This document shows positions 20,394 through 44,274 of a stretch of 45,933 nucleotides of DNA, piece after piece. Numbering within the stretch: position 1 is the first letter of the stretch; each line of letters opens with the position of its first letter. The notes beneath the pieces were generated by a model. The model was not told the origin of the DNA. It saw nothing but the letters and a program-made list of their open reading frames with translations, and did no database searches. A program made the translations under genes and the position numbers. The DNA lies in the NCBI GenBank assembly GCA_040900345.1, contig JBBDZE010000008.1:1-45933 (forward strand), read 5' to 3'. This DNA comes from Candidatus Spechtbacterales bacterium (lineage in GTDB: Bacteria; Patescibacteriota; Minisyncoccia; Spechtbacterales; 2-12-FULL-38-22).

Positions 20394-20467
20394 GGGCGCT
20401 TAGCTCAGTTGGTTAGAGCGCAGCATTCACATTGCTGAGGTCACAGGTTCGAATCCTGTAGCGCCCA
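20394..20467 (+). tRNA. tRNA-Val (anticodon CAC); CCA not encoded
   Basis: GGGCGCT TA GCTC AGTTGGTTA GAGC G CAGCA TTCACAT TGCTG AGGTC ACAGG TTCGAAT CCTGT AGCGCCC A. Confidence 0.85.
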
Positions 20468-20545
20468 CTACTTCGCTCCGCTTGTGCGGAGCTTCGAAGT
20501 GCGCAGCACAAGATGGCTGTGCCCTCCGTAGCCTTGGCGAAGGAG

Positions 20546-20621
20546 GGGCCTGTAGTTCACCTGGTAGAACACCGCATTCGCATTGCGGAGGTAGGCGGTT
20601 CGAGTCCGCCCAGGTCCACCA
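20546..20621 (+). tRNA. tRNA-Ala (anticodon CGC); CCA encoded
   Basis: GGGCCTG TA GTTC ACCTGGTA GAAC A CCGCA TTCGCAT TGCGG AGGTA GGCGG TTCGAGT CCGCC CAGGTCC A CCA. The G3:U70 Ala identity pair is present. Confidence 0.85.
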
Positions 20622-25379: not shown

Positions 25380-25386
25380 CGCGACA

Positions 25387-26427: not shown

Positions 26428-26688
26428 AGCGGTGAGCCAATTTTGGTAGAATAGTGTCGTAAGAATCCCGCTTCATGAGAACCGGTCGTTGACGCCACGG
26501 TTTTGACGGATGCGATACGTTCACAAACTGTTAGCACATCGGCTGCCTGTAACCTTTTTTAACTTCTGTAAACCATGATGTATACGCTATAGTTTAAGCA
26601 ATTCTAACCACTACATACCTCGGGTGCATTGTGGTCGTGACGGTAGGCTTTCTGGTCACTCCTCTAGCTCCTGTGGTTCCGCAAACAG

Positions 26689-28443: not shown

Positions 28444-28641
28444 TGTGCTCTTGGCCGAAAGAGAGGATTGGGGCTTGCCAGGCAAAAAAGATAGAGCTCA
28501 GTTAGCGAGAGCCTTCCCTGAAACCTTTCGCCTTCGCCCCGCCTGCGCCGTGGCTTCGGCGGGCGGGCAAGGCTTCGATGGACGCGGTGCGGTCTCCCGC
28601 TGTGCCCGCCATAGCTTTAGCGACGGCGGGCCCCGCAGGCT

Positions 28642-29168
28642 GATGGTTTGCTGGACGTGTCCCGCATGGAAGACGGGACCTTTGGATTTGCAGCAAAAGA
28701 CCAGGCTCGCGTGCCGGTTGTTGAGAAAGTCTGTGCCTCATTCGAGCAGGCTGCCAAGCGCAAGAAGATATGGTTTTCCGTTGACACTCCTCCTGAAGAG
28801 GATATTGTTACGTTTGATGCCGATAAGAGACCGTTGCAATTGAAAACGTAGGGGACAATGCGGTTAAGTACACCCCAGAAGGCGGTTCGGTGACGGTCTC
28901 GGTAAAACAAGAGAACGACCGGGCGATTATCACGGTTGCCGACACGGGGATCGGCGTGTCGGCGCAGCAGCAGACCTACGTGTTCTCCAAATTTTTTCGA
29001 ACAGAAAACGCACAGCGGCTCGAACCAAATGGGACGGGCCTCGGGCTGTACCTTACCAAAAACATTGTCGAGCACCACGGAGGAGTCGTTTCGTTTTTGA
29101 GCAAAGAAAACAAAGGAAGCGTGTTTGTTATCGCGCTCCTTCTTACCACGTCTCAGCTGGTAGGCTGA
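28642..29168 (+). pseudogene. Frameshifted 3' fragment of a histidine-kinase paralog (HATPase_c only; no H-box or TM region)
   Basis: LLDVSRMEDGTFGFAAKDQARVPVVEKVCASFEQAAKRKKIWF... (28648..28851) then stops. In another frame IENVGDNAVKYTPEGGSVTVSVKQENDRAIITVADTGIGV...GTGLGLYLTKNIVEHHGG continues to 29168. It is collinear with residues about 200-371 of the intact kinase 20676..21791 but clearly diverged at the DNA level. Confidence 0.75.
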
Positions 29169-29203
29169 GGGCACAGATCGATTCCCCTTGGGTCCGTGCT
29201 ATT

Positions 29204-30328
29204 ATGCTTTATATGAAGCTGAGCGGATCCAGACGCATCCTTACTGCCGGGGTCATTCTTTTGTGTGTTCTTGACGGATTGTTGTTTGTCGTTTTGCAAC
29301 GTCTCGATAGCTCACAAGCTTCTGACGTTTCCGGTCCGCTCTACAAGACGCTTACCGTCGAACAGTTGAAGGTGTTGGCCCCCGACCCCTTTGTCTACCT
29401 GCACAACAATCTTGAAGAAATCGTACTGTATCAGGATGCGGACGGCGCTTTGCACTTAACGAGAGAAGCTTTCCGGCAAGGAATGATCGATCGATTTGGC
29501 TGCCACACGCTTGCTCACGAAATCGGCCATCACGCAGCTTCAGAGGGGCATTTTGAGCACATTGAGCTTCACATCTCTGATGCCAATATTAACTTTTGCG
29601 GAGGAGGTTTTATGCACGGGGTTGAAGGAGGACTTGCCGAATCGGGCCATCCGGGGTTTCGCGAAGATCTCTACTACTTCTGTACGCTTGCGCTTCCCGT
29701 GGCCACCACCTATGCTGCGTGCTATCACGGGGCGGGGCACGCATTTGTTGATCGTTCTCAAGACTTCCCTGAAGCGCTTCAGCTCTGTGATACCCTTATT
29801 ACGGACGAGCGCATTACCGCAACAGCTTGCTATCAGGGCGTTTTTAGTGAGCATATAGAAAGGATGCAAAGGGAAGGTGTCGAGAATAGCGAGTTGCTTG
29901 GATTCTGCGCTTCAATACGCCAAGCACTCCAAAATATCTGCGCACTAGAGCTGAATGGCCTGAACATTACCCCAGCATCGACGAATGCAGTAGTTGAAGA
30001 AACATTGAAGATTTGCGTGTACAACGACTACCCTGCAACGGTTAAGACGGGATGTTTGGAGAGCGTTTCTTGGGCTGCTGCAGATAGAGATGTATGGCAA
30101 CGAGGAAAGATTGTGCTCCTGCCTGTTATTTTCAATTTTCCTCAGGAGTTTCGGCGAGTATACATAGTGGCAACGACAAATAGGATGAAGGAGCACCTTA
30201 AGGACGGGACGGTAAATACGAATAGTTCGTTTTGTCAGGCATTTCCATCTCAGGACGATCAGCAGTTTTGCCGAGAGCGCATACTCACAAAAGACAACAG
30301 GGCTTTTACACACACCGCATTCCCATAA
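29204..30328 (+). CDS. Signal-anchored Cys-pair/His-motif helical-repeat protein (uncharacterised family, here called CHR), paralog 1
   Basis: TM anchor ILTAGVILLCVLDGLLFVVL; motifs GCHTLAHEIGHHA, CGGGFMHGVEG, ACYHGAGHAF, ACYQGVFSEH and further paired Cys. Confidence 0.8.
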   Translation: MLYMKLSGSRRILTAGVILLCVLDGLLFVVLQRLDSSQASDVSGPLYKTLTVEQLKVLAPDPFVYLHNNLEEIVLYQDADGALHLTREAFRQGMIDRFGCHTLAHEIGHHAASEGHFEHIELHISDANINFCGGGFMHGVEGGLAESGHPGFREDLYYFCTLALPVATTYAACYHGAGHAFVDRSQDFPEALQLCDTLITDERITATACYQGVFSEHIERMQREGVENSELLGFCASIRQALQNICALELNGLNITPASTNAVVEETLKICVYNDYPATVKTGCLESVSWAAADRDVWQRGKIVLLPVIFNFPQEFRRVYIVATTNRMKEHLKDGTVNTNSSFCQAFPSQDDQQFCRERILTKDNRAFTHTAFP

Positions 30329-30715
30329 TACGGCAGAGGAGGGTTCTTTGAGAAGTACGCACATTTCTTTGATTCGAGCATGGGGGCAGTAAGGAGGGTT
30401 GTTACAGAGAGGTGAAGCTTGTCGCAAGCAAGCAACGCAATACTTCTGTTGTAGCGTTCCGCGAGTAAGGAAACGCAGGAGCTTGTCTGTGGTAAGCTCC
30501 TGCGTGGGAGCCCCGTTCTTGTTGATCTAGCTTCCTTGATTACAGGAGGAGTTCTTACGAGAGATGCGGGTGTTTCGGGAGGGTTTTGGTATGATGGGGC
30601 CTGCATGAAGCGTATCTGGCCACGCAGGCATGCGTGATTGATGTGTCAGGAAGCATAGACGTGCACGGGCAGGCGCTTCTCAGCATGATAGCCATGCGAT
30701 ATCATAGGCATAGGT

Positions 30716-31987
30716 ATGATTCGCATGTTGACCACACCACTTTTCAGCAAAACATTTTTTTCTCGAAAGAAAATAGTGATCATTGGCCTTTTCGGTATAG
30801 CGAATGTGCTCCTTTTTGTTTTGTGGTTGGCGATGGGGGCTGTTCCTGGCGAGGTGCGCGATGCAAGAAGCAGCGAGGAGCTTCCTGAAATCCAGGAGTT
30901 GCAGGACACGAACCGCAACTTTGGAGAGCTGTCGGGCTATTTCAGTGCGCTTGCAGAGAACAAAGGGGGTGGGTATGCCTTTGCCGTCTTGCGCGCGGTA
31001 GAACTTCCACCCAACATCGACACGCACCTCTTGGGGCATGTCGTGGGGGACATTTTGTACAAGCAGAAAGGCCTGGAGGGCATCAACGTGTGCACCCACG
31101 ATTTTAGAAATGCCTGCTCCCATTCTATTGTCGTTGGGTTATTTAATGAGTTTGGCGAAGGTGCATTAGATGATATCGCGGCAGCCTGTCGCCAGGCGCC
31201 GGGAGGCAAGGGAGCCTATACCATGTGCTTTCATGGTTTGGGGCATGGCGTGTTGGCCTTTGTCGAGTACGAGATGCCCGACGCCATTGCGCTGTGCGAG
31301 AAAACGGGCACCGCTCTCTATCAGAACCGTGAATACATCGAATGCGTTGGCGGCACCGTTATGGAGATGATGGCGGGCGTCCACGACCCCGAGCTCTGGA
31401 GAGAAAAGTCGAAAAAGTATTTCCGTCAGGACGACCCGTTGTACCCCTGCACGAGTGATTTCATGCCTGATGAGGCGCGGGAGACGTGTTATATGTATCT
31501 CACGCCCCATCTGCTCGAATATGTGGGCGGCAATCCTGAACATTTTACGACGGCAAATTTTCGAGACGCATTTGCCTTATGCGACAAAGCCGATCAGAGG
31601 AGGCTACAGTTGGCGTGCAAGGCAAGTTTTGGGAAAGAGTTCATCGGGCTGATAAAGAACCGGGATATCCGCGACGTTGCAAACCTCAGCGAGGAAGAAG
31701 CGCGCACAATGTACGAGTGGTGTCTTTTGGCGGGGGATCGGGCTGGCAGTGCAGCGTGTATCGATAGCGCGATGGCGTCCCTGTACTGGGGCGGCGAAAA
31801 CGATCGGTCGGGCGCTGTTCGATTTTGCGGAGTCGTTGATGATGGGGAGTTCCAAACGATCTGTTTTAACAACCTGATAGGTGCGGTGCAGTATTATGTA
31901 CATGACCGCGCATACTACGAATCATTTTGTTCGGAGCTGCCATCTGCATATACCTCGGCATGCAAAGAGCGCCTCTTACAGAACTGA
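30716..31987 (+). CDS. CHR-family protein, paralog 2
   Basis: TM anchor IVIIGLFGIANVLLFVLWLAMG; HLLGHVVGDILY, CTHDFRNACSHS, MCFHGLGHGVLAF, ECVGGTVMEMM. Eight C-x8-16-C pairs in total. Confidence 0.8.
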   Translation: MIRMLTTPLFSKTFFSRKKIVIIGLFGIANVLLFVLWLAMGAVPGEVRDARSSEELPEIQELQDTNRNFGELSGYFSALAENKGGGYAFAVLRAVELPPNIDTHLLGHVVGDILYKQKGLEGINVCTHDFRNACSHSIVVGLFNEFGEGALDDIAAACRQAPGGKGAYTMCFHGLGHGVLAFVEYEMPDAIALCEKTGTALYQNREYIECVGGTVMEMMAGVHDPELWREKSKKYFRQDDPLYPCTSDFMPDEARETCYMYLTPHLLEYVGGNPEHFTTANFRDAFALCDKADQRRLQLACKASFGKEFIGLIKNRDIRDVANLSEEEARTMYEWCLLAGDRAGSAACIDSAMASLYWGGENDRSGAVRFCGVVDDGEFQTICFNNLIGAVQYYVHDRAYYESFCSELPSAYTSACKERLLQN

Positions 31988-32132
31988 CATGCCATCAATA
32001 CAACAACATAATCGATGGATGGGAAGCATTGCCAGAAATGCATAAAGAGAAGATTCGGCCATTGTTTGAAATTCTTGACCAAACGGCGAGAAACGGCAAC
32101 GCCAGTGGAGGATATCGCACGAGTAACTAACT

Positions 32133-33215
32133 ATGCGCTTTTTCGCCATCGTATCGGCTCATAAATTGAACAAGAACCGCTTGGTGCTTGTTGTTGGTAT
32201 AGGGCTTGTTGTAGTGTTAGTCGGAGTTGCATCCGCATTGTATTTCGGAGAGAGGGGTTCAGATGAACAAACCAGTATTGGTGCACAAGACAGGCCGGCA
32301 AACGATTATGCCTTGGAGGCAAAATGGTGGGCAGAAAGAATCGACACGATCGGCCCCGAAGATGCATACGAAGAGTTCAAGCACGCCTATCAACAGGAAA
32401 GCTATGCGAGGCAACACACCCTTGCGCATATCTTTGGAAGGGTACTCTATGAGAAGGCTGGCATCGAAGGTTTTGCAATATGTGATAGCGCTTTTGCATT
32501 TGGTTGTTATCATAGTTTTTTTGGCACCTCTATCAAGGCTGACGGAATGAGCATTGTGAAGGAACTCGATGGAGCATGTAGGCGCAGGTGGGGAGGCGCC
32601 TACATGCCCTGTCAGCATGGTATAGGCCACGGGATACTCAGTTCGTTAGGGGCAAATCACCTCCAAGACGCTCTCGATGTATGCTCAACAATCATGGAAC
32701 AGCCTACCGGGGGGTGTGCGAGCGGTATCTTTATGGAATATAATTTCAGGACGATGAGTGCTGTGTGGGGGGAAGGGGAGAGAACATTAGTACGTCCCTT
32801 ACGGGATGAGCGTGACGTGCATATGCCATGTGCGCTTTTACCGCAGCAATATACATCAGCATGTTATTATGAACAGCCACAGTGGTGGGAGTTTGTTCTT
32901 GGCGAAGATTACGAGCGGAGTAAAGCTCTCTGTGCGGAAATTACCGAGGAGGATGCTCGAGGAGCTTGCTTTCGTGGGGTTGGGCACTACAGAGCGAATA
33001 ATGGATACGACATAGAAAAAGTGCACGATGTATGCGGCACTATTGCCGCGGGGATGCCAGAGCAGCTTTTTTGCTATCAAGGCGCGGCATGGCTTTTTCT
33101 TGCAAGACAAAACGGGGGAGCGGATACAGCTCGTGCCCTATGCGAGGCCATCAAGAGAGAAGAAGACCGAGCGGTATGCTCGGCGAGTATAGAAGGTAAC
33201 ATATTTAGATTATGA
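32133..33215 (+). CDS. CHR-family protein, paralog 3
   Basis: TM anchor LVLVVGIGLVVVLVGVASALYF; HTLAHIFGRVLY, GCYHSFFG, PCQHGIGHGILS, GCASGIFMEY. Seven C-x7-12-C pairs (14 Cys). Confidence 0.8.
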   Translation: MRFFAIVSAHKLNKNRLVLVVGIGLVVVLVGVASALYFGERGSDEQTSIGAQDRPANDYALEAKWWAERIDTIGPEDAYEEFKHAYQQESYARQHTLAHIFGRVLYEKAGIEGFAICDSAFAFGCYHSFFGTSIKADGMSIVKELDGACRRRWGGAYMPCQHGIGHGILSSLGANHLQDALDVCSTIMEQPTGGCASGIFMEYNFRTMSAVWGEGERTLVRPLRDERDVHMPCALLPQQYTSACYYEQPQWWEFVLGEDYERSKALCAEITEEDARGACFRGVGHYRANNGYDIEKVHDVCGTIAAGMPEQLFCYQGAAWLFLARQNGGADTARALCEAIKREEDRAVCSASIEGNIFRL

Positions 33216-34363
33216 GCAAGACGATACGCACCATTGCTGTTGCGTTGCAAAAAAAAGTGATTTTTATGGCGAGGGGGGAAAAGAGTTTTGTGATAGCTGG
33301 TCTTTTTTTGGCAGGGTTGTTCGTGGCAGGAATAATCGTTATGGTTGACGGCTCGCAACCCCGCAGCCAAAGCGCGCCTTCGCAAGAAGAATTTCTCGAG
33401 ACAATGGAGGCGCAGTATCCTTCGGTTTTTGCCGGTATACGAGACAAGTTATCAGAGGTTGTTGAGGACTACGGTATAGGCGGGGCCCTTGCAATTTCGC
33501 TGAAGGCTTTTGGCGCGGGGGATATTTCTATGTACGAGTGCCATCTCCTTTTTCATACCATCGGACACAGTGCGGAGATTTATTACAACAGCGATGACAT
33601 GAAAATCGTGCAGCACGATAGCAACAACTGCGAGTTCGGCTATCGTCACGGCGTGGAAGCTCAAATCGTGGCACGAAATAGTGAACATTTTCAAGAAGAA
33701 TTACACCGTTTTTGTGACACCCTCATAGCCCATACCTCCTATCCAGATTGCTATCATGGCGCGGGACACGGCTTGGTGAAAGGAACACTCGATGTCCAAA
33801 AGACGCTCGAGCTCTGCGATTCGCTCCAAGAAGGGCGTTCCCGGTCAGTGTTTAGCTGTTATACCGGAGCTTTTAGCGAGGTCACGAATATCGTGGGAGG
33901 AGTGGACAGCGAGACGGGGTACCGGCTTACGGGAACTTCGCCGCTTACGCTCGGGGGACTAGAGGTGATGGAATACTGCGCTTCATTTACGGGAGAGGAG
34001 CATCAGCAGGCATGTGCTTACGAACTGAATGGATTAACGTTTTCTCTTAATACAACCGAGGAGCATCTTCGAAACGAATTATCGCGATGCGCGCAAGGAA
34101 GCTACGCCGAAGACCTCAAAGAAGCCTGTACGTACAGTGTTTCAGCCGTATTTGCCCAGCACATGCTGCCAAGAACGCAGTCGCTTTCGCCTTCGCATGA
34201 ACTGCTAGAAACCCTCACGCCGGGCCTGCGAGAAGCGTACATCATGGGTTCGGGTACGGAGATGAAGCAATTTATTATCAGCGGACAGAACCTAGACTGG
34301 AATGTCTTTTGCAATTTTTTTGAAGAGGATGAGCACGCAACGTGTGTCGCCATATTTGAGTAA
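33212..34363 (+). CDS. CHR-family protein, paralog 4
   Basis: ATGA start/stop overlap with the upstream gene. TM anchor FVIAGLFLAGLFVAGIIVMV; ECHLLFHTIGHSAEIYY, CEFGYRHGVEA, DCYHGAGHGLVKG, SCYTGAFSEV. Confidence 0.8.
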   Translation: MSKTIRTIAVALQKKVIFMARGEKSFVIAGLFLAGLFVAGIIVMVDGSQPRSQSAPSQEEFLETMEAQYPSVFAGIRDKLSEVVEDYGIGGALAISLKAFGAGDISMYECHLLFHTIGHSAEIYYNSDDMKIVQHDSNNCEFGYRHGVEAQIVARNSEHFQEELHRFCDTLIAHTSYPDCYHGAGHGLVKGTLDVQKTLELCDSLQEGRSRSVFSCYTGAFSEVTNIVGGVDSETGYRLTGTSPLTLGGLEVMEYCASFTGEEHQQACAYELNGLTFSLNTTEEHLRNELSRCAQGSYAEDLKEACTYSVSAVFAQHMLPRTQSLSPSHELLETLTPGLREAYIMGSGTEMKQFIISGQNLDWNVFCNFFEEDEHATCVAIFE

Positions 34364-34368
34364 GCGTT

Positions 34369-34776
34369 ATGCAGAAGAACAGTATACAGCACAGGGCAAC
34401 CAAAGGAGGCGTCGCAGGAATTGTTCTTGTGTGCATTCTTTTGGGCGGAACGTACGTTGTGATTGATCGACAAGAGGCGACGGTCGGGAAGGAGGACAAG
34501 CATGCCACTCATATCGTACGGGTTACGGATACAGCATTTGTGCCCGCAGAGCTGCATGTCCGTTGGGGAGATACGGTGCAGTTTATCACCGAGCGCGGTA
34601 CCGCGTTCTGGCCCGCCTCTGACCTTCACCCCATACACGAAGACTACCCCGATTTTGACGCACGAAGGCCGATTCCCCCAAATGAATCATGGACCTTTAC
34701 ATTTACCCAGAAGGGCAGTTGGAGCTACCACAATCACTTGCACCCTTTCTTTAGGGGCAGGATAGTTGTTGAATAG
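34369..34776 (+). CDS. Signal-anchored stand-alone cupredoxin-like domain protein with a His cluster and no ligand Cys (here called HCu), copy 1
   Basis: TM anchor VAGIVLVCILLGGTYVVI; FVPAELHVRWGDTVQFITERGTAFWPASDLHPIHEDYPDFD...PNESWTFTFTQKGSWSYHNHLHPFFRGRIVVE. Confidence 0.8.
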   Translation: MQKNSIQHRATKGGVAGIVLVCILLGGTYVVIDRQEATVGKEDKHATHIVRVTDTAFVPAELHVRWGDTVQFITERGTAFWPASDLHPIHEDYPDFDARRPIPPNESWTFTFTQKGSWSYHNHLHPFFRGRIVVE

Positions 34777-34783
34777 GCGAGGC

Positions 34784-36001
34784 ATGCGTTGGAAACACAT
34801 CTCGATAAAGAAAAAAGGGTTATGGTTTGTCCTTGGCGTTGAGGCCGTCTTTGTTTTGGCGCTTGTTCTCGTTGGGGTGTCTTTCCCTATAGATAAGGAA
34901 AAGACGGCAGCGGAAGAGGCATCCTTGGCAATATACGCAGAGGGAGTGATTGAGGCATGCAGCAGCGTTCGGTACCGGCCGGCCTGCTACGATGAAGAAA
35001 TTCCCAAGCTCATGGATGCTCTGTCCATGGAAGAAGCATTTGCTGTAACCAAGCTCGTGCAAGAACAGGATGAGTCGTACTGGTACTGCCATGTGTTGGC
35101 CCATGCATTAGGAGCGCGCGAAACGGCAAAAGATCCTTCCCGGTGGATAGACGTCATTGCGCGGGTGCCAAGTCACATGTGTTCAAATGGCGGCATCCAT
35201 GGAGCGTTTCAAGAACGGTTTCGATCAGAAACGCTTGCACCAGAAGAAGTAGAGCGGGTATTGCCGGATCTGCAAAAGGCATGCGAGCCGCGTCCCTCAT
35301 GGAGTCCCACCAGCATGGAGCAGGCAACCTGCTACCATGCGCTCGGTCATCTCGCCATGTATATTACCGGAGGAGATATTCACCGGGCGGTGGCAGTATG
35401 CGAGGATGTTGCACGGCAGACGAGTGCGGATTTTACCCCGTTGTGCTACGACGGGGCCTTTATGCAGATTTTTCAACCGCTTGAGCCGGAAGACTTTGCT
35501 CTTATTGAGGGCAAACAGCCCGCCAAAGAAGAACTTGCGTCATATTGCCATCAATTCTCAGGGGCGCAGTACGCGTCCTGTTGGAGCGAAGGGTGGCCGC
35601 TCTATTCGGCCGAAATACAGAATGCTGACGGCCTGACAGCATTCTGTTCGGCCGTTCCTGAAGGACCCGATCGAAACCTGTGCTTTACCGACATATTTTA
35701 CGTGCTGACGGCTCAGTTCGAGTTCGATCATGCCAGTATCGTGGGATTGTGTAGCAGCATGCCGGAAGCGCGTAAGGGGCAATGTTTTGCCAGCGCTGCA
35801 TCGCGCTTTATTGAGACGGATGCACAGCTTACCGATCGGGCAGTAGCGCTTTGTGCGGCAGCAACCCGAGAGACGGAGCAAAGAAAATGCTACGAAGAAC
35901 TCGTATTTTACGCCTCATATAATTTTAAAAAAGGGTCAAAGGAATTCGAGCATCTCTGTGGCAGCCTTCCGATGTCTTATCGAGAAGGGTGCTATCGTTA
36001 G
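34784..36001 (+). CDS. CHR-family protein, paralog 5
   Basis: ATG lies 8 nt after the upstream stop (a TTG at 34766 is also possible). TM anchor LWFVLGVEAVFVLALVLVGV; YCHVLAHALGARE, MCSNGGIHGAF, TCYHALGHLAMY, LCYDGAFMQIF, plus 5 further Cys pairs. Confidence 0.8.
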   Translation: MRWKHISIKKKGLWFVLGVEAVFVLALVLVGVSFPIDKEKTAAEEASLAIYAEGVIEACSSVRYRPACYDEEIPKLMDALSMEEAFAVTKLVQEQDESYWYCHVLAHALGARETAKDPSRWIDVIARVPSHMCSNGGIHGAFQERFRSETLAPEEVERVLPDLQKACEPRPSWSPTSMEQATCYHALGHLAMYITGGDIHRAVAVCEDVARQTSADFTPLCYDGAFMQIFQPLEPEDFALIEGKQPAKEELASYCHQFSGAQYASCWSEGWPLYSAEIQNADGLTAFCSAVPEGPDRNLCFTDIFYVLTAQFEFDHASIVGLCSSMPEARKGQCFASAASRFIETDAQLTDRAVALCAAATRETEQRKCYEELVFYASYNFKKGSKEFEHLCGSLPMSYREGCYR

Positions 36002-36004
36002 GCT

Positions 36005-37537
36005 ATGAATAACAGAAAGAAAAAAAACGAGTTAGGGAAGAAAATGGAGACGGCGCTGAAGCGCTATAAGCGTTGGGGCGTGGCTGTGAGCATTATTTTG
36101 GGAGTGGCTAGTGGTGCTGCGCTTATTTTTGCAGCACCATTCTGGGGGGCGCAGGAATATCACGTTGAGCTGCGCGAAGATGGGTTCTATCCCGAGGAGC
36201 TTTCGGTGCAGGTAGGCGATACCGTAACCTTTAGCACAAGCAGGGGGCAGCTCTTTTGGCCTGCTTCGGCTCTTCATCCAGATCATTCTATTTATCCTGA
36301 GTTTGATCCTCAGCAGCCGATTAACCCCGGAAACTCCTGGAGTTTTCGCTTTGAAAAAGAAGGGAGATGGAAGTATCATGATCATCTCCATCCCAATTAT
36401 TCAGGAGTCATCACCGTAGGCACCTCTGGCAGCAGTATCGTGGCGCTCGCCCAGAATTGTGTCGAGGTCTCTCGGGACCAAAAAATGGCCTGCTGGGACC
36501 AGCAGCTGGAGGCGACGCTTAAGGCAGAAGGATTGGACGCAGCATTTGATTTATTTGTTCATCTCTACCAAACAGAGCCTGATATTCCTAAGGCCTGCCA
36601 CGAATGGGGGCACGTTTTGGGGGAGGCCGCGTACGATTTATATATGAGCGACGAAGATTTTAAACTCGTTCCAGAAACGGCCTACTGCGGATACGGTTTT
36701 TATCATGGATTTTTGGAAGAATTTGTCCGGGATACGGGAGGAAATTTCGCTGAGATACAGCAGTTCTGCACCTCAGTGTCGGAAGAACTAGGCGAGCAGC
36801 TCTTCTCAGTATACCGAAACTGTGTGCACGGCGTAGGTCACGGGACGACCGCCTGGATTTTGGAGGACCCTTCGTATTGGGGTGACTTTCAAAAGGTGGC
36901 AGATGCAGGTCTTGGCGTTTGTGAAGATACCTTTGGAGGAACAAATGAGATCCGTGACTGCTATGACGGCGTATTCAATGAGCTCTATCTCGATGTACTG
37001 AATAGTCAGTACCGGTTCAACTTTACGCAGTTTAAAACGATGGGCGATCCGTTTTGGTATTGCAGAAGGGTAGCTGAGCGGCACAAAGAGTCGTGTTACT
37101 TTGAGTTTATTGGTCTTACCTATACTTTTTTCAACTATGACGTGAAGGCAGCAACGCGTTATTTTCTAGACACGGTGGATAATCTGGAAGAGTACGGAGA
37201 CACGACCATAGGAAAGCTTGCAGCTGATTATATGCAATTCGACATTGTCAAAGATAGTCATGAACCAAACGTTGAGGCATGCAGAATGGTCCCCGGATAT
37301 CTGTTCCAGGATTGTTTCTTTGGTATTACAAACGGTTTTATACAGCATGGGGAGCCGGAAAATATGCACGAGAAAGGGCTGCATTTTTGCGGGGAGGGCT
37401 ATTTAACAGCGAGAGAAAAAACACTGTGCTACCAGAATATGTTCGGGCTTCTACGGGCAAACTATAGCACAGAAAAGCTTAGGCAGGTTTGTTCAACGGT
37501 AGGCGCAGAAGTGTGGCGCTCATACTGTCCACTCTAA
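36005..37537 (+). CDS. Fusion protein: signal anchor plus HCu cupredoxin-like domain plus CHR module (paralog 6)
   Basis: GFYPEELSVQVGDTVTFSTSRGQLFWPASALHPDHSIYPEFDPQQPINPGNSWSFRFEKEGRWKYHDHLHPNYSGVITVG is followed by ACHEWGHVLGEAAYDLY, AYCGYGFYHGFLEEF, NCVHGVGHGTTAW, DCYDGVFNELY... Confidence 0.85.
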   Translation: MNNRKKKNELGKKMETALKRYKRWGVAVSIILGVASGAALIFAAPFWGAQEYHVELREDGFYPEELSVQVGDTVTFSTSRGQLFWPASALHPDHSIYPEFDPQQPINPGNSWSFRFEKEGRWKYHDHLHPNYSGVITVGTSGSSIVALAQNCVEVSRDQKMACWDQQLEATLKAEGLDAAFDLFVHLYQTEPDIPKACHEWGHVLGEAAYDLYMSDEDFKLVPETAYCGYGFYHGFLEEFVRDTGGNFAEIQQFCTSVSEELGEQLFSVYRNCVHGVGHGTTAWILEDPSYWGDFQKVADAGLGVCEDTFGGTNEIRDCYDGVFNELYLDVLNSQYRFNFTQFKTMGDPFWYCRRVAERHKESCYFEFIGLTYTFFNYDVKAATRYFLDTVDNLEEYGDTTIGKLAADYMQFDIVKDSHEPNVEACRMVPGYLFQDCFFGITNGFIQHGEPENMHEKGLHFCGEGYLTAREKTLCYQNMFGLLRANYSTEKLRQVCSTVGAEVWRSYCPL

Positions 37538-39060
37538 TGGGGAACCCTTGGATGCGAATGCGCTTATTCCCAACAGCATTGGCAAAAATACGTACACGAG
37601 GAAGGGGTACCGCTCTTGCTACGCTAGGGGTTTTTGTTCTTGCCCTTCTGGTAGTTGCTTTTGCGCTCATTGCTCGACACGCTACGCCTACGGTGTCCCT
37701 CTCTCCTGAGGGCTTTGTGCCTCGTGAACTGACTATTCAGCTTGGCGATACCGTGACGTTTGTCAATAAAAGCAATCGCCCCATCTGGCCCGCTTCCAAC
37801 ATCCATCCCGACCACTCCATCTACCCAGAGTTTGACCCCAAGCGTCCCTTAGAACCCGGCGAAGAATGGTCGTTTACCTTCACCAAAGAAGGAAGGTGGC
37901 GCTTCCATGACCATCTTAACTCGCTCCATGAAGGAGTAGTTACGGTGGGGGATGGCACGGCGACACGAGAGGGGGAGGATGGCCGGTGCGATGACGCCGC
38001 CAATAAAGTGGCGTGCTGGGGCGAGCGCGTTGAGTATGCTCTCGCCGGTAATAATGTAGAAGCAGCTTTCAATGTGGTAGCCGAGCTCTATGAAAAAGAG
38101 CCCCAGCTTGCCGGAGGCTGTCATGGCTATGCGCATCTCATTGGCGAAAAAGCATATGACCTTTTCTCTCAAGGGTATGACTTTGAGCTGACGCCAAAGA
38201 CGGCATACTGCGGGTACGGCTTTTTCCACGGCTTCATGGAAACGTTGTTGCATACGACGGGGGATCTTGCGGAGGCGCGTGCCTTTTGTGCCTACGTTAA
38301 TGAGAAGCTTCGCTACGTATCAAGCGGAGCGGCCAGCGCATGTAACCACGGCATCGGGCACGGGGCGGTAGATGGCAGCGATCCGCGGGCGTGGGGAGAT
38401 CCCTATGCCATGATGAAGCCGGGGATGGACTTGTGCCGTGCGCTCGCAAAAGAGGACAAGCCCTCGTATGGCAGCCCGCTGTATCTGTGCATCACGGGGG
38501 TCTATAACGCCCTTGAAATACTTTCAATGGATGATCGATACCGCCTTGAAGCTTTACGAGAAGACCCGTTTGCTTTTTGCGAGCGAGAACAGGTTGCGTA
38601 TCAAGAAGGATGCTACACCAACATGCTACCCGCGCTCTTGCGCCTAACGAATAACGACGTTATGCAAAGCGCCCGCCTCGTCGAGGCCATACCCGAGGAA
38701 GGCGACAGCTACGAAATCCGTAGCCTCGTTATACTTTCGCTTACCCATGAATATATTCGTCTGCACATGAACGACGCAAACTACACAGAAGAGGGGATCG
38801 CTCTGTGTCGGCAGCTTGCCGATCGCTCACACCTTCCGTGTATTCGCGGTCTCTCCGGCGGGCATATGAAATATGGAAAGCCGGGGGAAGAATACGTAAA
38901 GATGATTGCTTTTTGCACAACGCCAACCATGCGCCCCGACGAGCGCGATGCCTGTTTTGAATATGTCTTTCCGTTATTGCGTCTTTGGTACCCGCAAGGA
39001 AAAGTGGAAGAAATCTGCACCCGTGTCGAACTGCCCTATCGTTCGTACTGCCCCCGATAG
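37537..39060 (+). CDS. Fusion protein: signal anchor plus HCu domain plus CHR module (paralog 7)
   Basis: TAATG stop/start overlap at 37535-37539. GFVPRELTIQLGDTVTFVNKSNRPIWPASNIHPDHSIYPEFDPKRPLEPGEEWSFTFTKEGRWRFHDHLNSLHEGVVTVG is followed by GCHGYAHLIGEKAYDLF, AYCGYGFFHGFMETL, ACNHGIGHGAVDG, LCITGVYNALE... Confidence 0.85.
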   Translation: MGNPWMRMRLFPTALAKIRTRGRGTALATLGVFVLALLVVAFALIARHATPTVSLSPEGFVPRELTIQLGDTVTFVNKSNRPIWPASNIHPDHSIYPEFDPKRPLEPGEEWSFTFTKEGRWRFHDHLNSLHEGVVTVGDGTATREGEDGRCDDAANKVACWGERVEYALAGNNVEAAFNVVAELYEKEPQLAGGCHGYAHLIGEKAYDLFSQGYDFELTPKTAYCGYGFFHGFMETLLHTTGDLAEARAFCAYVNEKLRYVSSGAASACNHGIGHGAVDGSDPRAWGDPYAMMKPGMDLCRALAKEDKPSYGSPLYLCITGVYNALEILSMDDRYRLEALREDPFAFCEREQVAYQEGCYTNMLPALLRLTNNDVMQSARLVEAIPEEGDSYEIRSLVILSLTHEYIRLHMNDANYTEEGIALCRQLADRSHLPCIRGLSGGHMKYGKPGEEYVKMIAFCTTPTMRPDERDACFEYVFPLLRLWYPQGKVEEICTRVELPYRSYCPR

Positions 39061-39161
39061 CGTTGGCAGCACCCGTGGGTAGGGGTTTAAGAGAAAAAGG
39101 GCCTATGCTATGCTGAAAAAATAAATTCGCTTTTATAGACAAACACACTACTCATAAAGCT

Positions 39162-39707
39162 ATGCGAGAAGGAGCACTGTTTCTTATCACCGTTACCCTT
39201 ATGACCATTGGCACAGCGCTCATGGTGCTTCCTCAGGGGGTATTTGCTCACGGCACCGGCGCCTCCTTCGAAGCAGACGTCGATCAGTACCGGATTGATG
39301 TCGGCTATGAGCCGGAACAGATGAGCGTCGACATCGCTACGCTCTTTGATTTTTTACTGCAGGATCGGCAGACGGGCGAAGACGTAGCCTTTAGCGACGT
39401 GTGGGTGCGCATCTCCCAAGGCAACCAAACAGTGTTTGCGAGCGGGGTTGCACGTCCAAGGTTTGGGACCACCACGTTAACCTACCTCTTCCCACGAGCA
39501 GGGAGCTACGAGCTGTCGGTTCGGTTCCAAAATCAGGGAGAAGCGATTGTTGAAAGTACCTTCCCCCTTACCGTCAAGGAGGGTGTCAGCGATATCAAAA
39601 CACTATCAGAAAAGAAATCTACGATTCTCCCCGTGACACTTGCTTTTGCCGGTGGGGCAGTGATCGCAGGGGCAGCCACCCTGTTTATGCGACGCCCCAA
39701 GAAATAG
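39162..39707 (+). CDS. Exported beta-rich protein with a predicted N-terminal His after signal cleavage and a C-terminal TM anchor (uncharacterised)
   Basis: The signal peptide ...LMVLPQGVFA|HGTGASFEADVDQYRIDVGYEP would leave His as residue 1. The body has alternating beta-strand-like sequence. The C-terminus is ILPVTLAFAGGAVIAGAATLFMRRPKK. Confidence 0.7.
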   Translation: MREGALFLITVTLMTIGTALMVLPQGVFAHGTGASFEADVDQYRIDVGYEPEQMSVDIATLFDFLLQDRQTGEDVAFSDVWVRISQGNQTVFASGVARPRFGTTTLTYLFPRAGSYELSVRFQNQGEAIVESTFPLTVKEGVSDIKTLSEKKSTILPVTLAFAGGAVIAGAATLFMRRPKK

Positions 39708-39725
39708 CGTAATCAAGGGGGTACT

Positions 39726-40175
39726 ATGCATACAAAAAATCTTGCTATTATTGGTCTTCTCATTCTGATTGCAACGGCTATCGCTCTTGGGGTGGTTCTT
39801 ATGGTGCGTCCTGAGCAGAGCGGGGACCTCAGCGCAGGCAAGGATGCCGATCAGCAAACACGAGAGCGTCACCCAGGCTTTGCAATTGATGCCTCCGCCG
39901 CGCAGGAACGTATTCGCATTACCCAGGAGGGATTTTTTCCGGAGGAGATTACCGTACAGCGAGGAGATAGTGTTGTCTGGATAAATGAAGCGAGCGAGTA
40001 TCGCTGGCCCGCCTCGAACCTGCATCCTACCCATTCAATCTATGCCGAATTCGATCCACTTGAGCCGCTTGCTCCCGGAGAGAGTTGGAGCTTTCGGTTC
40101 GAACAAGAGGGAAGCTGGCAGTACCATGACCATTTGCGTCCCAGTAAGGAGGGGGTAATCATTGTGGAGGGGTAG
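39726..40175 (+). CDS. Stand-alone HCu cupredoxin-like protein, copy 2
   Basis: SD-like AAGGGGG upstream. TM anchor LAIIGLLILIATAIALGVVLMV; GFFPEEITVQRGDSVVWINEASEYRWPASNLHPTHSIYAEFDPLEPLAPGESWSFRFEQEGSWQYHDHLRPSKEGVIIVE. Confidence 0.8.
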   Translation: MHTKNLAIIGLLILIATAIALGVVLMVRPEQSGDLSAGKDADQQTRERHPGFAIDASAAQERIRITQEGFFPEEITVQRGDSVVWINEASEYRWPASNLHPTHSIYAEFDPLEPLAPGESWSFRFEQEGSWQYHDHLRPSKEGVIIVEG

Positions 40176-40278
40176 TGCGCGCACGTTTCTACACGTTTGT
40201 CGATGAACGTGGTAGTATATAAATAATTATTGTAGCGGGGCCAGTGACATTTTACGTGGCTTCCGCTATGGATATCGT

Positions 40279-40806
40279 ATGAAAAAGGAAAACTTATTTT
40301 TTGCCGTTGCTATACTTGTTTTGGCGGGGGTTGCCGTTGCGCTAGGATACGCGATTTATCAAACAAGCGTGGGAGGAAATAACGCCACGGATGAAGACGC
40401 TCCTTCCGGTAATGGCCAAACGAACGAAACGCTTACCGATGAAGAAATTGTTCTTCAGCCGCCCCAGGAAGACGCAAGTCCCGAAGAAAAAGATGCTCAT
40501 TTTTCCGCGGCTCAACGTATTGCGGTGGAAGGAAATTCGGTAACGCTTACTGAGTGCAAGGCCGATCCGCTCGTGTTAGCGCTGAGCATGGATGACCGCA
40601 TTACCCTGGTCAATGAAAGCGACGTTGCGATAGAAATAAGTCGTGATGCAGGCGTATTTCTGTACCGTGTGCCGGCAAACGACTCCCGAACAGTTGAGAC
40701 GGACTTCGCAGTACACGGGAATGGCCTGTATGGTTACCGTTGTGGGGCGGAGGAAAATGATGCGTTCGGTGATGGAGTGGGCGGTTTCTTCTTGATTGGA
40801 GGATAA
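40279..40806 (+). CDS. Signal-anchored protein with an acidic linker and a degenerate cupredoxin-like beta-sandwich (no HPxH/HxH motifs)
   Basis: TM anchor LFFAVAILVLAGVAVALGYAIY; EGNSVTLTECKADPLVLALSMDDRITLVNESDVAIEI...YRVPANDSRTVETDF...GLYGYRCG resembles the Cupredoxin_1-type strand pattern. Confidence 0.55.
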   Translation: MKKENLFFAVAILVLAGVAVALGYAIYQTSVGGNNATDEDAPSGNGQTNETLTDEEIVLQPPQEDASPEEKDAHFSAAQRIAVEGNSVTLTECKADPLVLALSMDDRITLVNESDVAIEISRDAGVFLYRVPANDSRTVETDFAVHGNGLYGYRCGAEENDAFGDGVGGFFLIGG

Positions 40807-40819
40807 TTTTAGCGATTGC

Positions 40820-40855
40820 AAACAACGCCTTTTTGGAAAAGGCGTTGTTTTTGTT
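40820..40855 (+). terminator. Rho-independent terminator
   Basis: AACAACGCCTTTT-tgg-AAAAGGCGTTGTT followed by TTTTG, 15 nt after the stop of 40279..40806. Confidence 0.75.
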
Positions 40856-41247
40856 GGGGAGGGCGAGCCAAAGGCATTGCCAGGACAGTGAGTTGATTTT
40901 TCTTACGGTAGGACTGACGCAGAGCTATGTCTGCACCTGAAATATGCTATACTCTCAGAAAACAGCCATGAGACAGCAGGTGCTTGATATATGCATGGGG
41001 CGGTTGCGGTAGGTTGTGGGGCTCAACCGGCCCTTGTGTATGCTTCTAAAATGCATCGCATCGGTATCAAGGAGGAGGGCTTTTGCCTTCCGACAGTACC
41101 GTCTTGCGAGGGGATTCAACTACCTTTGTCCACGAAGGGGCGCGTCTACTGGCCGGCTCCCATGTGCACCCTGTTCATCAAATTTTCCTGGAGCCTGACT
41201 CGCGCACGTCGTGCCGTGCGGGTGCGCATACCATCTCCTAAATCCTT

Positions 41248-42786
41248 ATGCGTCCTATCTTTTTTCTTGCCAGCCTGAGCCTGTTCCTGGGTATGCCCCT
41301 TGTTGCCGCAGCGCATACCGGCGACACCGAAGGGGCGGTTATCCATATGGACGAAAGCGGGTATCGTCCCGCAGACGTTACCATACCGCAAGGGGAAACG
41401 GTAACATTCGAAAACGTCGCCGGACACTCCTGGCCGGCTTCCAATATCCACCCCACGCACCGGGCGTATCCTGAGTCGGGACTCGACCAATGCGGTACCA
41501 GCGAAGAAGAAAAAGCATTTGACGCGTGCCGCGCGCTTGCGCCAGGAGAGTCCTATACCTTTCGGTTCGTGCATGCCGGCGAGTGGCGCTACCATGATCA
41601 CCTTGATCCGCGCCTCAAGGGCACGATAATCGTTACCGCCGTTGAAGGGTTCGCCGAGGCACAGAGCACCGAGGACGAAGCGAAGCACAGCATCTGGCGG
41701 GCAGTAGGGGACTTTTTGGGTGGCACGTGGAGCTGGCTTACGGGTCTTTTTACGGAAGAACCAGATACGCCTGAAGGCATCACCTATCGGGAAGATATTA
41801 CGAGGGATGCCGATATCTTAGCGGGGGGCGCGGGAAGTGAGAGTATACTGTACTCGTACGTTCGAAAGTTCGGACCAGCGGCGGCCACAAAGCGTGCCAA
41901 CGAGCTGCAGGCCCACTACGGGAGCTGCCATCAAGCGGCGCATGATATCGGTAAGTACGCCTATCTGCTGGAAGGAGCGAAGGCGTTTCAGTCCTGTAGC
42001 GCCGAGTGTCATTCGGGCTGCTATCACGGGGCCACCGAAAATTACTTCCGCGACCAGGGCACGGCGAACCTTATCCAGAATATAAGCGTCATATGCAGCA
42101 GCGACCTCAATCCCTTTTTCTCTCATCAGTGCGTGCATGGTATCGGGCATGGGCTGATGGCCTGGGCAGATTATGACATTTTCGAAGCACTCGAAAACTG
42201 TAGCAGGTTGCCCAACTTACGCGAGTCCTGCTACACGGGTGCCTATATGGAAAACATCGTTGGCGGCCTTGCTTTCGATCAGGGACACATTACCGAGTAT
42301 CTAAGCGACGATCCCCACATGCCATGTAATGTTGTTGATGAGCCGTATAAATCTTCGTGCTACTTTTATCAAACATCCCGGATGGTGCAGCTGTTTGCGG
42401 GGGACTTTGGCAAGGTTGCAGACGCGTGTCTTGAGGCGCCAAAACAGTACCACGCTGTGTGCTTTCAGAGTATGGGGCGCGATGCAAGCGGACGGCACCC
42501 CGATCCGTCCGACGCCATTGCCGCATGCCGAAATGCGCCGGCCGGGACGAGCCAAACACAGTGCTTCATTGGGATTGCGCAAAATGCGCTGTGGGATGAA
42601 AGCGGGCAGGACGACGCCCTCGCATTGTGCGGTGCATTTGCAAATACCGAAGAGGAGGCGGTTTGTTACGGGACGCTTTTTGCGCGCGCCCCCGATGTTT
42701 TTTCAAGCGCAAGCAAACAGCGTGCCTTTTGCGATAAAATGAAACAGCCCTACCGCGACCAGTGTTATGCGCAGGCAGAGATTTGA
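41248..42786 (+). CDS. Secreted fusion protein: signal peptide plus HCu domain (with a Cys-containing insert) plus CHR module (paralog 8)
   Basis: Signal MRPIFFLASLSLFLGMPLVAAA|HTGD. GYRPADVTIPQGETVTFENVAGHSWPASNIHPTHRAYPE...GESYTFRFVHAGEWRYHDHLDPRLKGTIIVT is followed by SCHQAAHDIGKYAYLLE, CSAECHSGCYHGATENY, QCVHGIGHGLMAW, SCYTGAYMENI... Confidence 0.85.
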   Translation: MRPIFFLASLSLFLGMPLVAAAHTGDTEGAVIHMDESGYRPADVTIPQGETVTFENVAGHSWPASNIHPTHRAYPESGLDQCGTSEEEKAFDACRALAPGESYTFRFVHAGEWRYHDHLDPRLKGTIIVTAVEGFAEAQSTEDEAKHSIWRAVGDFLGGTWSWLTGLFTEEPDTPEGITYREDITRDADILAGGAGSESILYSYVRKFGPAAATKRANELQAHYGSCHQAAHDIGKYAYLLEGAKAFQSCSAECHSGCYHGATENYFRDQGTANLIQNISVICSSDLNPFFSHQCVHGIGHGLMAWADYDIFEALENCSRLPNLRESCYTGAYMENIVGGLAFDQGHITEYLSDDPHMPCNVVDEPYKSSCYFYQTSRMVQLFAGDFGKVADACLEAPKQYHAVCFQSMGRDASGRHPDPSDAIAACRNAPAGTSQTQCFIGIAQNALWDESGQDDALALCGAFANTEEEAVCYGTLFARAPDVFSSASKQRAFCDKMKQPYRDQCYAQAEI

Positions 42787-42878: not shown

Positions 42879-43301
42879 GTGATGTCTATCAAAACCATTA
42901 GTGTTGTCATTATTGTTGGCGTCGTAGCGTTGGTTTTGGCATGGGCGTTTTGGTTGAAGGGCGATACACCCGCCGAAGATGCTACCGACACCAACCAAGA
43001 GGAAACCATTGCCGGCGCCGAAAACAGCTCGATTATTATTCGCATGACGAGCAGGGGGTTTGAACCCAGCGAAGCCACCATCAAAAAGGGCGACTCGGTT
43101 GTCTGGATGAATGCCGACGACGAAGACCGCTGGCCGGCATCCGATACCCATCCTACTCACACGATCTATCCGGGCTTTGATCCGCAACAGCCCATTGCAG
43201 AGGGCGAAAGCTGGATTTTTGTTTTTGACCGTGTCGGCACGTGGGGCTTCCATGAGCATCTCAATCCAAGTTTGGGCGGCACAATAACGGTAACGGACTA
43301 A
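42879..43301 (+). CDS. Stand-alone HCu cupredoxin-like protein, copy 3
   Basis: TM anchor VVIIVGVVALVLAWAFWL; GFEPSEATIKKGDSVVWMNADDEDRWPASDTHPTHTIYPGFDPQQPIAEGESWIFVFDRVGTWGFHEHLNPSLGGTITVT. Confidence 0.8.
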   Translation: MMSIKTISVVIIVGVVALVLAWAFWLKGDTPAEDATDTNQEETIAGAENSSIIIRMTSRGFEPSEATIKKGDSVVWMNADDEDRWPASDTHPTHTIYPGFDPQQPIAEGESWIFVFDRVGTWGFHEHLNPSLGGTITVTD

Positions 43302-44218: not shown

Positions 44219-44236
44219 TCTCGCTACACAACAGAA

Positions 44237-44265
44237 GCAAAACCGCGCCAAAGGCGCGGTTTTGC
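44237..44265 (+). terminator. Hairpin terminator after 43304..44218
   Basis: GCAAAACCGCGCC-aaa-GGCGCGGTTTTGC, with a 13-bp perfect stem and T-rich 3' arm. Confidence 0.65.
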
Positions 44266-44274
44266 TTCGAGATG

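Follow-up and report, generated by a model that had tools for sequence, protein, structure and literature searches.

Eight genes for Cys-pair/His-motif helical-repeat proteins on a Spechtbacterales contig and their association with cupredoxin-like domains and a GT39 glycosyltransferase

Results

The gene array

The window analyzed here is the whole 45,933-bp contig of a metagenome-assembled genome (MAG) from Candidatus Spechtbacterales (Parcubacteria, candidate phyla radiation or CPR), with locus tags WD850_00670-00760. Its + strand carries eight genes for predicted extracytoplasmic proteins that share one module, named here CHR (Cys-pair/His-motif helical-repeat), interspersed with small cupredoxin-like genes and preceded by a glycosyltransferase gene of the GT39 type. 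The module family matches no described family and is unnamed, and the WD850 proteins retrieved by look-up are all "hypothetical protein" in NCBI. The original prediction, made from the nucleotide sequence alone, had listed eight + strand open reading frames (ORFs), and all eight are present at the starts it gave. The genes considered in this work are listed below. Residue numbers refer throughout to the 41248 protein, which represents the most widespread CHR subfamily and was the paralog chosen for AlphaFold2 modeling.

26689..28443, + strand, GT39/PMT_2-type GT-C glycosyltransferase, 584 amino acids (aa), polytopic, NTDEV "DE" motif
29204..30328, + strand, CHR paralog 1, 374 aa, transmembrane anchor and module
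30716..31987, + strand, CHR paralog 2, 423 aa, transmembrane anchor and module
32133..33215, + strand, CHR paralog 3, 360 aa, transmembrane anchor and module
33212..34363, + strand, CHR paralog 4, 383 aa, transmembrane anchor and module, ATGA overlap with paralog 3
34369..34776, + strand, stand-alone cupredoxin-like protein, Cys-less, transmembrane-anchored, 135 aa, amicyanin E 1.5e-8, Cys92 replaced by Asn
34784..36001, + strand, CHR paralog 5, 405 aa, alternative TTG start at 34766
36005..37537, + strand, CHR paralog 6, 510 aa, transmembrane anchor, cupredoxin-like domain and module
37537..39060, + strand, CHR paralog 7, 507 aa, transmembrane anchor, cupredoxin-like domain and module, TAATG junction
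39726..40175, + strand, stand-alone cupredoxin-like protein, Cys-less, transmembrane-anchored, 149 aa
41248..42786, + strand, CHR paralog 8, 512 aa, signal peptide, cupredoxin-like domain (aa 30-130) and module (aa 197-509)
42879..43301, + strand, stand-alone cupredoxin-like protein, Cys-less, transmembrane-anchored, 140 aa, Cupredoxin_1 E 1.7e-5

The array had been described as a set of eight genes with very tight junctions implying co-transcription. The genes are there, but the array is interrupted by four others that the description left unmentioned (34369-34776, 39162-39707, 39726-40175 and 40279-40806). Likewise, tight junctions do exist from 33212 to 37537 (-4, +5, +7, +3 and -1 nt), but the remaining ones are loose (92-441 nt, among them 387, 145, 101, 103 and 441), and co-transcription is plausible solely for the 32133-39060 block. 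Scans of the region for consensus promoters and terminators did no better than on shuffled sequence, and Rfam and tRNA scans returned nothing inside the array region. The GC content is 0.47-0.52 over the GT39/CHR region (26000-40000) versus 0.54-0.60 in the upstream housekeeping part (1-25000), a difference that may reflect a different origin or merely a different amino acid composition. The small cupredoxin-like gene at 34369-34776 is intact and was recorded solely from Logan assemblies. Since the NCBI protein set of the contig does not include it and the locus-tag numbering has no slot for it, public annotation apparently skipped this gene.

Export signals and conserved residues

Each of the eight proteins consists of an N-terminal hydrophobic anchor or signal peptide followed by a module of 305-358 aa. 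In the hydrophobicity profiles, a single stretch stands out in each protein, at the N-terminus and with K/R ahead of it (Kyte-Doolittle 19-residue mean 2.2-2.9); no other stretch comes close. From this hydrophobicity, seven of the eight are predicted to be type-II anchored (N-in/C-out), while the 41248 protein would have a cleavable signal peptide, cut between VAAA and HTG. A Tat-like RR is found in paralog 1 alone. The export signals claimed for all eight proteins are thus borne out. The term "exoprotein" that had been applied to them holds as far as the extracytoplasmic location is concerned, but seven of the eight are read as membrane-anchored ectoproteins rather than free ones.

The His motifs quoted in the original prediction, as well as the seven Cys pairs that it assigned to 32133..33215, are all found in the translations. 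When the eight are aligned, the positions that never vary are those of H-x3-H-x2-G and C-x-H-x2-G-H, the His of the "HG" unit and another eight Cys. These columns persist in a wider alignment of 420 non-redundant modules, where the conservation of the five His is 1.00 (H228), 0.98 (H232), 0.99 (H260), 0.99 (H297) and 1.00 (H301), that of two acidic residues is 0.86 (E264) and 0.83 (E335), and C283, C295, C318, C328, C360 and C371 are conserved at about 100%. Information content is higher in repeats R1-R4 (1.8-2.2 bits per column) than in R6-R9 (1.1-1.4), so that conserved N-terminal repeats are followed by subfamily-variable C-terminal ones.

The number of Cys residues in the ectodomain is even in all eight window proteins (12, 16, 14, 12, 18, 16, 16 and 20 in paralogs 1 to 8). 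In the 420 modules, the variable Cys columns are gained and lost in pairs, with phi values of 0.97 (394/405), 0.83 (461/473), 0.77 (495/506), 0.89 (250/258) and 0.96 (227/254). Predicted partners that appear and disappear together are the expected signature of disulfide partners, and this covariation supports the earlier suggestion that the paired Cys act as staples. The patterns around C227 and C254 are C-C- in 166 modules, CCCC in 138 and -C-C in 88.

Searches against known families

No Pfam or NCBIfam model matched the module of the eight window proteins. When 95 diverse members of the family were compared with Pfam, nothing consistent was obtained, only scattered weak single matches (SCRG1 in five and ZnuA in one, E 9e-4). 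A profile search of all PDB sequences gave no matches at E ≤ 10. Foldseek comparisons of the modeled module returned only generic solenoids, of the HEAT/ARM/TPR kind in PDB (E ≥ 0.06, template modeling score, or TM-score, ≤ 0.30) and equally generic ones in BFVD (E ≥ 0.34). The search for a profile or structure match that would explain the motifs therefore produced none, and with the His and Cys columns and the export signals both retained, none of the three outcomes named beforehand as able to overturn the original prediction was observed. No description of the module, the His ladder or the cupredoxin/GT-C cassette was found in Pfam, NCBIfam, PDB or the searchable literature. The CHR family is neither an artefact nor an already explained system.

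Several specific assignments were considered and rejected. The resemblance in principle to Helicobacter Hcp/Sel1-like proteins that had been pointed out is real, but membership is not: neither Sel1 (PF08238) nor any TPR-clan model matched the eight window proteins or the 95 members at E ≤ 1, and Foldseek gave no PDB match at E ≤ 1e-3, the top ones being HEAT/ARM proteins with TM-scores of at most 0.30. With the full-length model as a query, Foldseek returned cupredoxins and, at rank 2, EfeO (probability 0.97, TM-score 0.15). However, direct comparison of the module profile with E. coli EfeO by hhalign gave a probability of 0.08% for homology to the M75 domain, and EfeO was outside the best 50 module-only Foldseek matches; because of the hhalign result, the likeness to EfeO is considered architectural only. 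A zincin was rejected because HExxH occurs in one of the eight paralogs (36005, HEWGH), the others having T, L, T, L, V, G and Q at position 2. LanC-like, tyrosinase and hemerythrin-type folds, which the motifs resemble, were not among the best 50 Foldseek matches listed and had no Pfam match, and they are treated as analogies only.

Family size, distribution and age of the paralogs

An exhaustive HMMER profile search of 1.84 billion cluster representatives detected 7,437 representatives (50% identity clusters) at E ≤ 1e-3 and 2,607 at E ≤ 1e-30, among them proteins with 2-10 tandem modules, and at least 379 relatives were confirmed in species-representative genomes. The best 80 loci belong to Patescibacteria, Chloroflexota (including SAR202), Nitrospirota, Binatia, Acidimicrobiia, Gemmatimonadota and Proteobacteria, with a few labelled archaeal. 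The distribution, which the original prediction had proposed to check with a profile scan, thus extends well beyond Patescibacteria. All 80 come from MAGs and none from a cultured organism. Many are complete Dehalococcoidia chromosomes of 3-5 Mb. Other loci hold 1-3 CHR copies, so the eight copies found in the window are exceptional.

The window paralogs are 22-31% identical to one another (43-197 bits), and their alignment scores indicate homology far beyond chance. Each has orthologs outside the window that are closer to it, at 35-62% identity (177-410 bits). The array therefore consists of eight old subfamilies standing side by side, in agreement with the old expansion that had been proposed, and a recent tandem amplification is rejected. 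Elsewhere, the 41248 type is usually partnered by a ninth CHR subfamily, encoded by the adjacent gene or fused to it in two-module proteins.

Predicted fold and the His ladder

AlphaFold2 models were obtained for the 41248 protein. The full-length model, built from an alignment of 123 sequences, has a mean predicted local distance difference test score (pLDDT) of 88.4 and a predicted TM-score (pTM) of 0.83, and shows a beta domain at residues 30-130 and an all-helical domain at 197-509. The module modeled alone (pLDDT 92.3, pTM 0.88) is a repeat solenoid of 17 helices, which fits the alpha-solenoid proposed in the original prediction. Beyond residue 273 the model alternates short (8-12 aa) and long (14-18 aa) helices, and in each Cys pair the first residue ends a short helix while the second lies near the start (turn one or two) of the long helix that follows. 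According to this high-confidence prediction, the module is a rod or arc built of about nine repeats of ~33 aa, each with a short helix and a long one. Repeats R3-R9 are mutually similar (hhalign E 2e-5 to 4e-3).

The conserved His and acidic residues occupy similar offsets, counted from the second Cys of each repeat:

R1, anchor Cys C227, with H228 (+1) and H232 (+5)
R2, anchor Cys C258, with H260 (+2) and E264 (+6)
R3, anchor Cys C295, with H297 (+2) and H301 (+6)
R4, anchor Cys C328, with M334 (+6) and E335 (+7)

Repeat-to-repeat hhalign comparisons recover the register in which H260/E264, H297/H301 and M334/E335 are equivalent. Because equivalent positions on parallel helices are neighbors and residues at i and i+4 share one helical face, we infer a contiguous His/Glu patch that would span at least R2-R4. 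The Gly residues that flank it (HGxGHG) would let a ligand approach closely.

The cupredoxin-like partner

A domain of ~100 aa is common to the proteins encoded at 34369, 39726 and 42879 and to the N-terminal parts of the 36005, 37537 and 41248 proteins, giving three stand-alone and three fused copies in the window. Its consensus is WPASNIHPTH..YPEFD...W.YH[D/N]HL, with four conserved His (in WPASNIHPTH and YHxH). The Pfam model Cupredoxin_1 matches the window domain just under threshold, amicyanin matches it at E 1.5e-8, and Foldseek identifies a Greek-key cupredoxin fold, with plastocyanin and amicyanin found at a probability of 1.00 and target TM-scores of 0.6-0.77. Aligned with amicyanin, the domain has Asn or Asp in place of the ligand Cys92, and the position of Met98 is not conserved (Phe, Ser, Arg or similar). 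Among 200 non-redundant domains, the motif was found in 179, with D (125), N (53) or E (1) where the ligand Cys would be, and no column of the 200 has more than 24% Cys. The domain lacks the His-Cys-His-Met ligand set of a classical type-1 cupredoxin, and since the copper-ligand Cys is replaced and the Met98 position is not conserved, it is not a blue copper electron carrier. Its place is among the Cys-less cupredoxins, of which FtrB binds Cu2+ via Asp/His-type residues and oxidizes Fe2+ (PMC11966278).

The partnership, which like that with GT39 had escaped the original prediction, looks obligatory. Of 101 family ORFs at 81 other loci, 63 are fused to a cupredoxin-like domain (60 at the N-terminus and 3 at the C-terminus) and 17 have a separate copy within 3 kb; the other 21 have none, several of them being on truncated contigs. 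In ten longer family proteins that were checked, cupredoxin was the sole Pfam partner. The 175-aa product of the gene at 40279-40806 (+ strand), which has a lipoprotein-like N-terminus, aligns loosely with the cupredoxin-like domains and has none of their His motifs; it may be a degenerate copy.

The GT39 glycosyltransferase and other links to glycans

The window copy of the glycosyltransferase (26689-28443) does not reach the threshold of any Pfam model. Homologs that are 35-47% identical to it contain PF13231/PF02366 and go under the names ArnT-like, Dol-P-Man protein mannosyltransferase or GT39, and D89/E90 of the NTDEV motif, in the first extracytoplasmic loop, are invariant in 47 GT39 sequences. 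By homology and DE motif, the protein is classified as a GT39/PMT_2 GT-C enzyme. A GT39 homolog lies beside a family gene in 14 of the 81 other genome loci, in several phyla; the gap is 1-120 bp in ten of the 14, nearly all of these with both genes on the same strand, and up to ~0.8 kb in the rest. In the reciprocal test, 50 of 80 metagenome loci recovered with a GT39 profile have a family gene within 1.5 kb, and so do 36 of the 51 loci with enough upstream sequence. The 41248-type subfamily adjoins GT39. Typical operons are CHR-GT39-CUP, CHR-CHR-CUP, (CUP+CHR)x2 and CUP+CHR-GT39, where CUP is the cupredoxin-like domain or gene. The link to GT39 is specific but not universal.

In two loci (L017 and L022) a GT2 gene of polyprenyl-phosphate-sugar-synthase size follows GT39, and one GT39 homolog (P0376) is fused to TPR repeats. 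No direct fusion of GT39 to the module was seen among the GT39 homologs returned by the homology search. Other recurrent neighbors in Dehalococcoidia loci, of the ThrC, XdhC-like, MocA-like and FtsE-like types, lie on mixed strands; they were discarded as partners and put down to lineage synteny. Three genes upstream of the window GT39, at 22630-24294 (+ strand), there is an apolipoprotein N-acyltransferase-like gene (LNT_N and CN_hydrolase). Mycobacteria have an Lnt-like domain joined to the polyprenol-phosphate-mannose synthase supplying Pmt.

Other genes of the window

Two paralogous transmembrane-anchored proteins are encoded at 24312-25379 and 25276-26427 (+ strand). They have LHHA, MLHNP, HLH(A/P)WEGG and AMGM motifs and weak Pfam matches to SURNod19 and Cu2_monoox_C, and may be copper monooxygenase ectoproteins resembling PHM/DBH. 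Their relatives are few, occur only in Patescibacteria, are all "hypothetical" and do not accompany the CHR family elsewhere. Between GT39 and paralog 1, the ORFs 28648-28851 and 28890-29168 (+ strand) recall, by DTGIGV, GTGLGL and HGG, a histidine kinase in its C-terminal half, as if a sensor kinase gene had been broken or truncated here. The gene at 39162-39707 (+ strand) specifies a 181-aa protein with a signal peptide, weak matches to PKD/filamin-like beta-sandwiches and a C-terminal transmembrane anchor. Since its predicted cleavage site lies between VFA and HGTG, the mature protein would start with His. Neither PDB nor Pfam yielded a match to it, and it has no relatives in other CHR loci.

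The run of + strand genes that ends at 44218 is closed by a perfect, GC-rich 16-bp hairpin at 44234-44268, just upstream of a gene at 44344-45324 (+ strand) for a 326-aa predicted secreted protein with a HEMCH (HExxH) motif and no Pfam match. Farther upstream in the window, a cluster at 16234-20621 has six tRNA genes (Lys, Arg x2, Pro, Val and Ala) around a CCA-adding enzyme gene, and an ORF at 16311-17126 resembles a pilin of type IV secretion systems.

Discussion

The structural claims and the gene associations described above are held with strong confidence. The interpretation that we favor, to which we give about as much credence as doubt, is that CHR is an extracytoplasmic, probably disulfide-stapled solenoid with a His/Glu metal site in its first four repeats, working with the cupredoxin-like domain. 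That the His/Glu site binds metal seems to us slightly better than an even prospect; our confidence in the identity of the metal and in the role of GT39 is low. In the mechanism that we envisage, the Cys pairs would form disulfide staples after Sec export, and the His/Glu ladder would then bind one or two transition-metal ions acquired outside the cell. The Sec-type anchors imply that folding and cofactor loading take place outside the cell, which favors simple metal ions over complex cofactors. Copper would be the first guess, given the fold of the partner domain, the precedent of FtrB and the PHM-like genes nearby, and zinc or iron are possible. The metal-loaded solenoid and the cupredoxin-like domain could together relay metal or electrons at the cell surface, with the variable C-terminal repeats supplying the partner or ligand specificity of each subfamily. 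In the GT39-linked cassettes, at least those of the 41248 type, the pair may act on, recruit substrate for, or be modified by surface glycosylation. A wider proposal, which we regard as tentative and rather doubtful, is that the module, the Cys-less four-His cupredoxin-like domain and a dedicated GT39 form an undescribed three-part extracytoplasmic system present in at least eight phyla, in which a metal-loaded (probably copper) stapled solenoid would perform or regulate a redox or metal-dependent step tied to surface glycosylation. If this is true, both the metalloprotein fold class and its type of metal site would be new.

Several observations weigh against the metal-site solenoid. No metal-binding family or fold matched the module, and the clustering of the His side chains is argued from the repeat register, not from measured distances. 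The helix that carries H228 and H232 is antiparallel to that of H260 in the model, and the two may be too distant to share a site. As for the staples, only 71% of the 420 trimmed modules have an even number of Cys, and no DsbA or VKOR thiol oxidase was noticed among the window genes. In addition, AlphaFold2 predicts a 22-residue helix between C227 and C254, so a direct disulfide between them is geometrically doubtful. GT39 was not found within 10 kb in 67 of the 81 genome loci, including ~30 Dehalococcoidia loci with cupredoxin fusions. Finally, a 3,580-aa protein (P0121, L085 8001-18743), encoded on a circular, CPR-sized 831-kb contig, combines ten tandem modules with a GH3 glycosidase and LRV/HEAT repeats, a fusion that points to glycans rather than metals.

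This giant protein also bears on the alternatives, the weightiest of which, though unlikely, makes the family an accessory or client of glycosylation. The solenoid would be the extracytoplasmic acceptor-recognition or scaffold subunit of GT39, doing in trans what TPR domains do in TMTC/TMEM260 and in bacterial PMT_2-TPR fusions, or it and the cupredoxin-like protein would be substrates of the enzyme, and the His would be structural or bind a ligand. Such a role would agree with the GH3 domain of the ten-module protein, the short, same-strand distances to GT39 in most of the 14 genome loci of several phyla, the adjacent family genes in 36 of the 51 GT39-seeded metagenome loci, the GT2 gene that follows GT39 in two loci and the TPR fusion of P0376. 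In eukaryotes, moreover, GT-C enzymes with helical-repeat domains O-mannosylate beta-sandwich domains. However, the many loci devoid of GT39, the ~30 Dehalococcoidia cupredoxin fusions among them, and the lack of a GT39-module fusion among the homologs returned speak against it, and a pure scaffold would leave unexplained both the five His conserved at 98-100% with their Gly flanks and the constant pairing with a four-His cupredoxin-like domain. Conservation of this kind, with small residues around the His (HGxGHG), is reminiscent of a catalytic site, and the His/Glu ladder might instead be the active site of a surface hydrolase or oxidase acting on glycans or peptides of the envelope or host, with the cupredoxin-like domain as a redox or substrate-binding partner. 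The H-x3-H, H-x3-E, H-x3-H, E pattern recalls what we take to be di-metal helical sites, the GH3 fusion and the glycosyltransferase neighbors would fit, and there is a precedent for pairing a copper oxidase with a glycosyltransferase in CslA-GlxA of Streptomyces. Since Foldseek and profile searches revealed no enzyme fold or family, HExxH is confined to one of the eight paralogs, and the modeled solenoid seems open and without an obvious pocket, we consider a metalloenzyme less probable still than a glycosylation accessory.

An array of adhesins or host-interaction proteins, in which rigid, disulfide-hardened surface repeats with structural His would endow an episymbiotic CPR cell with eight specificities, appears improbable. 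All the proteins are predicted to be surface-anchored, their C-terminal repeats differ between subfamilies, the ten-module giant belongs to a CPR-sized circular contig, and eight genes are unusually many for the family. On the other hand, the family is equally common in Dehalococcoidia of 3-5 Mb, Nitrospirota, Binatia and Acidimicrobiia, for which genome size argues against episymbiosis. Furthermore, the orthologs are kept at 35-62% identity across lineages instead of diversifying, and the cupredoxin and GT39 partnerships would have no explanation. We give the least weight, very little indeed, to a thiolate metal store in which the Cys would be metal ligands, as in Csp-like copper-storage or Fe-S proteins, rather than disulfides. 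The 12-20 Cys per protein, some of them beside His (C-H and C-x-H), and the 227/254 pair that is hard to close in the model could be seen in this light. Yet a Cys at i-1 or i-2 before a His would, on geometric grounds, project from the helix in another direction than that His, which argues against mixed Cys/His sites. The same Cys-pair geometry is found in the His-free repeats 4-9, the pairwise gain and loss of Cys is that of disulfides, and Sec-type export, with an RR resembling a Tat motif in paralog 1 alone, implies folding outside the cell.

More than 7,000 clusters at 50% identity, distributed from ultra-small CPR bacteria to 4-Mb Dehalococcoidia, are without a name, a Pfam or NCBIfam model or any structural relative, and the surface biology of the organisms that carry them is almost unknown. 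Five near-absolute His, the fusion to a Cys-less copper fold and the linkage to a GT-C enzyme make the family a testable candidate for a new system that handles metals or modifies glycans outside the cell. The MAG that contributed the window, with eight subfamilies at one locus, is a convenient source of constructs for their comparison.

Comparison with known systems

The Hcp/Sel1-like repeat (SLR) proteins of Helicobacter resemble CHR in design only: both are exported alpha/alpha solenoids in which a Cys pair staples each repeat. The Cys spacing is 7 in Hcp, and in CHR, with repeats of ~33 aa, it is 9-13. The Hcp/SLR proteins also lack the His ladder of CHR and its cupredoxin and GT39 partners. 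EfeO shares with three of the eight window proteins and 63 of the 101 relatives the order of an N-terminal cupredoxin-like domain followed by a helical His/Glu domain, but its M75/imelysin-like HxxE domain is unmatched by the CHR module (hhalign 0.08%, TM-score 0.15). The iron systems to which EfeO and FtrB belong also differ in that no EfeU/Ftr1 permease, P19 or EfeB is found among the recurrent CHR neighbors. A parallel to the partner domain is FtrB ("Cup-II" of Fe2+ uptake systems), likewise a Cys-less cupredoxin. Amicyanin and plastocyanin have the same fold as this domain, and amicyanin the sequence similarity given above, but in the CHR partner the Cys has become Asp/Asn, the axial Met is not kept and four other His are conserved.

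The coupling of a GT-C enzyme to an extracytoplasmic alpha-solenoid and a beta-sandwich, which for CHR is deduced from gene linkage, recalls other GT-C enzymes with helical-repeat partners, namely bacterial PMT_2-TPR fusions and the presumably analogous eukaryotic TMTC1-4 and TMEM260. CHR-GT39 differs from these in that the CHR solenoid is a separate, Cys-stapled and His-bearing protein and that its coupling is absent from most loci. The stapled solenoid design (Hcp/SLR) and the two-domain logic (EfeO) are thus precedented, and the module itself, the His ladder and the cassette of a Cys-less cupredoxin and a GT-C enzyme are apparently new.

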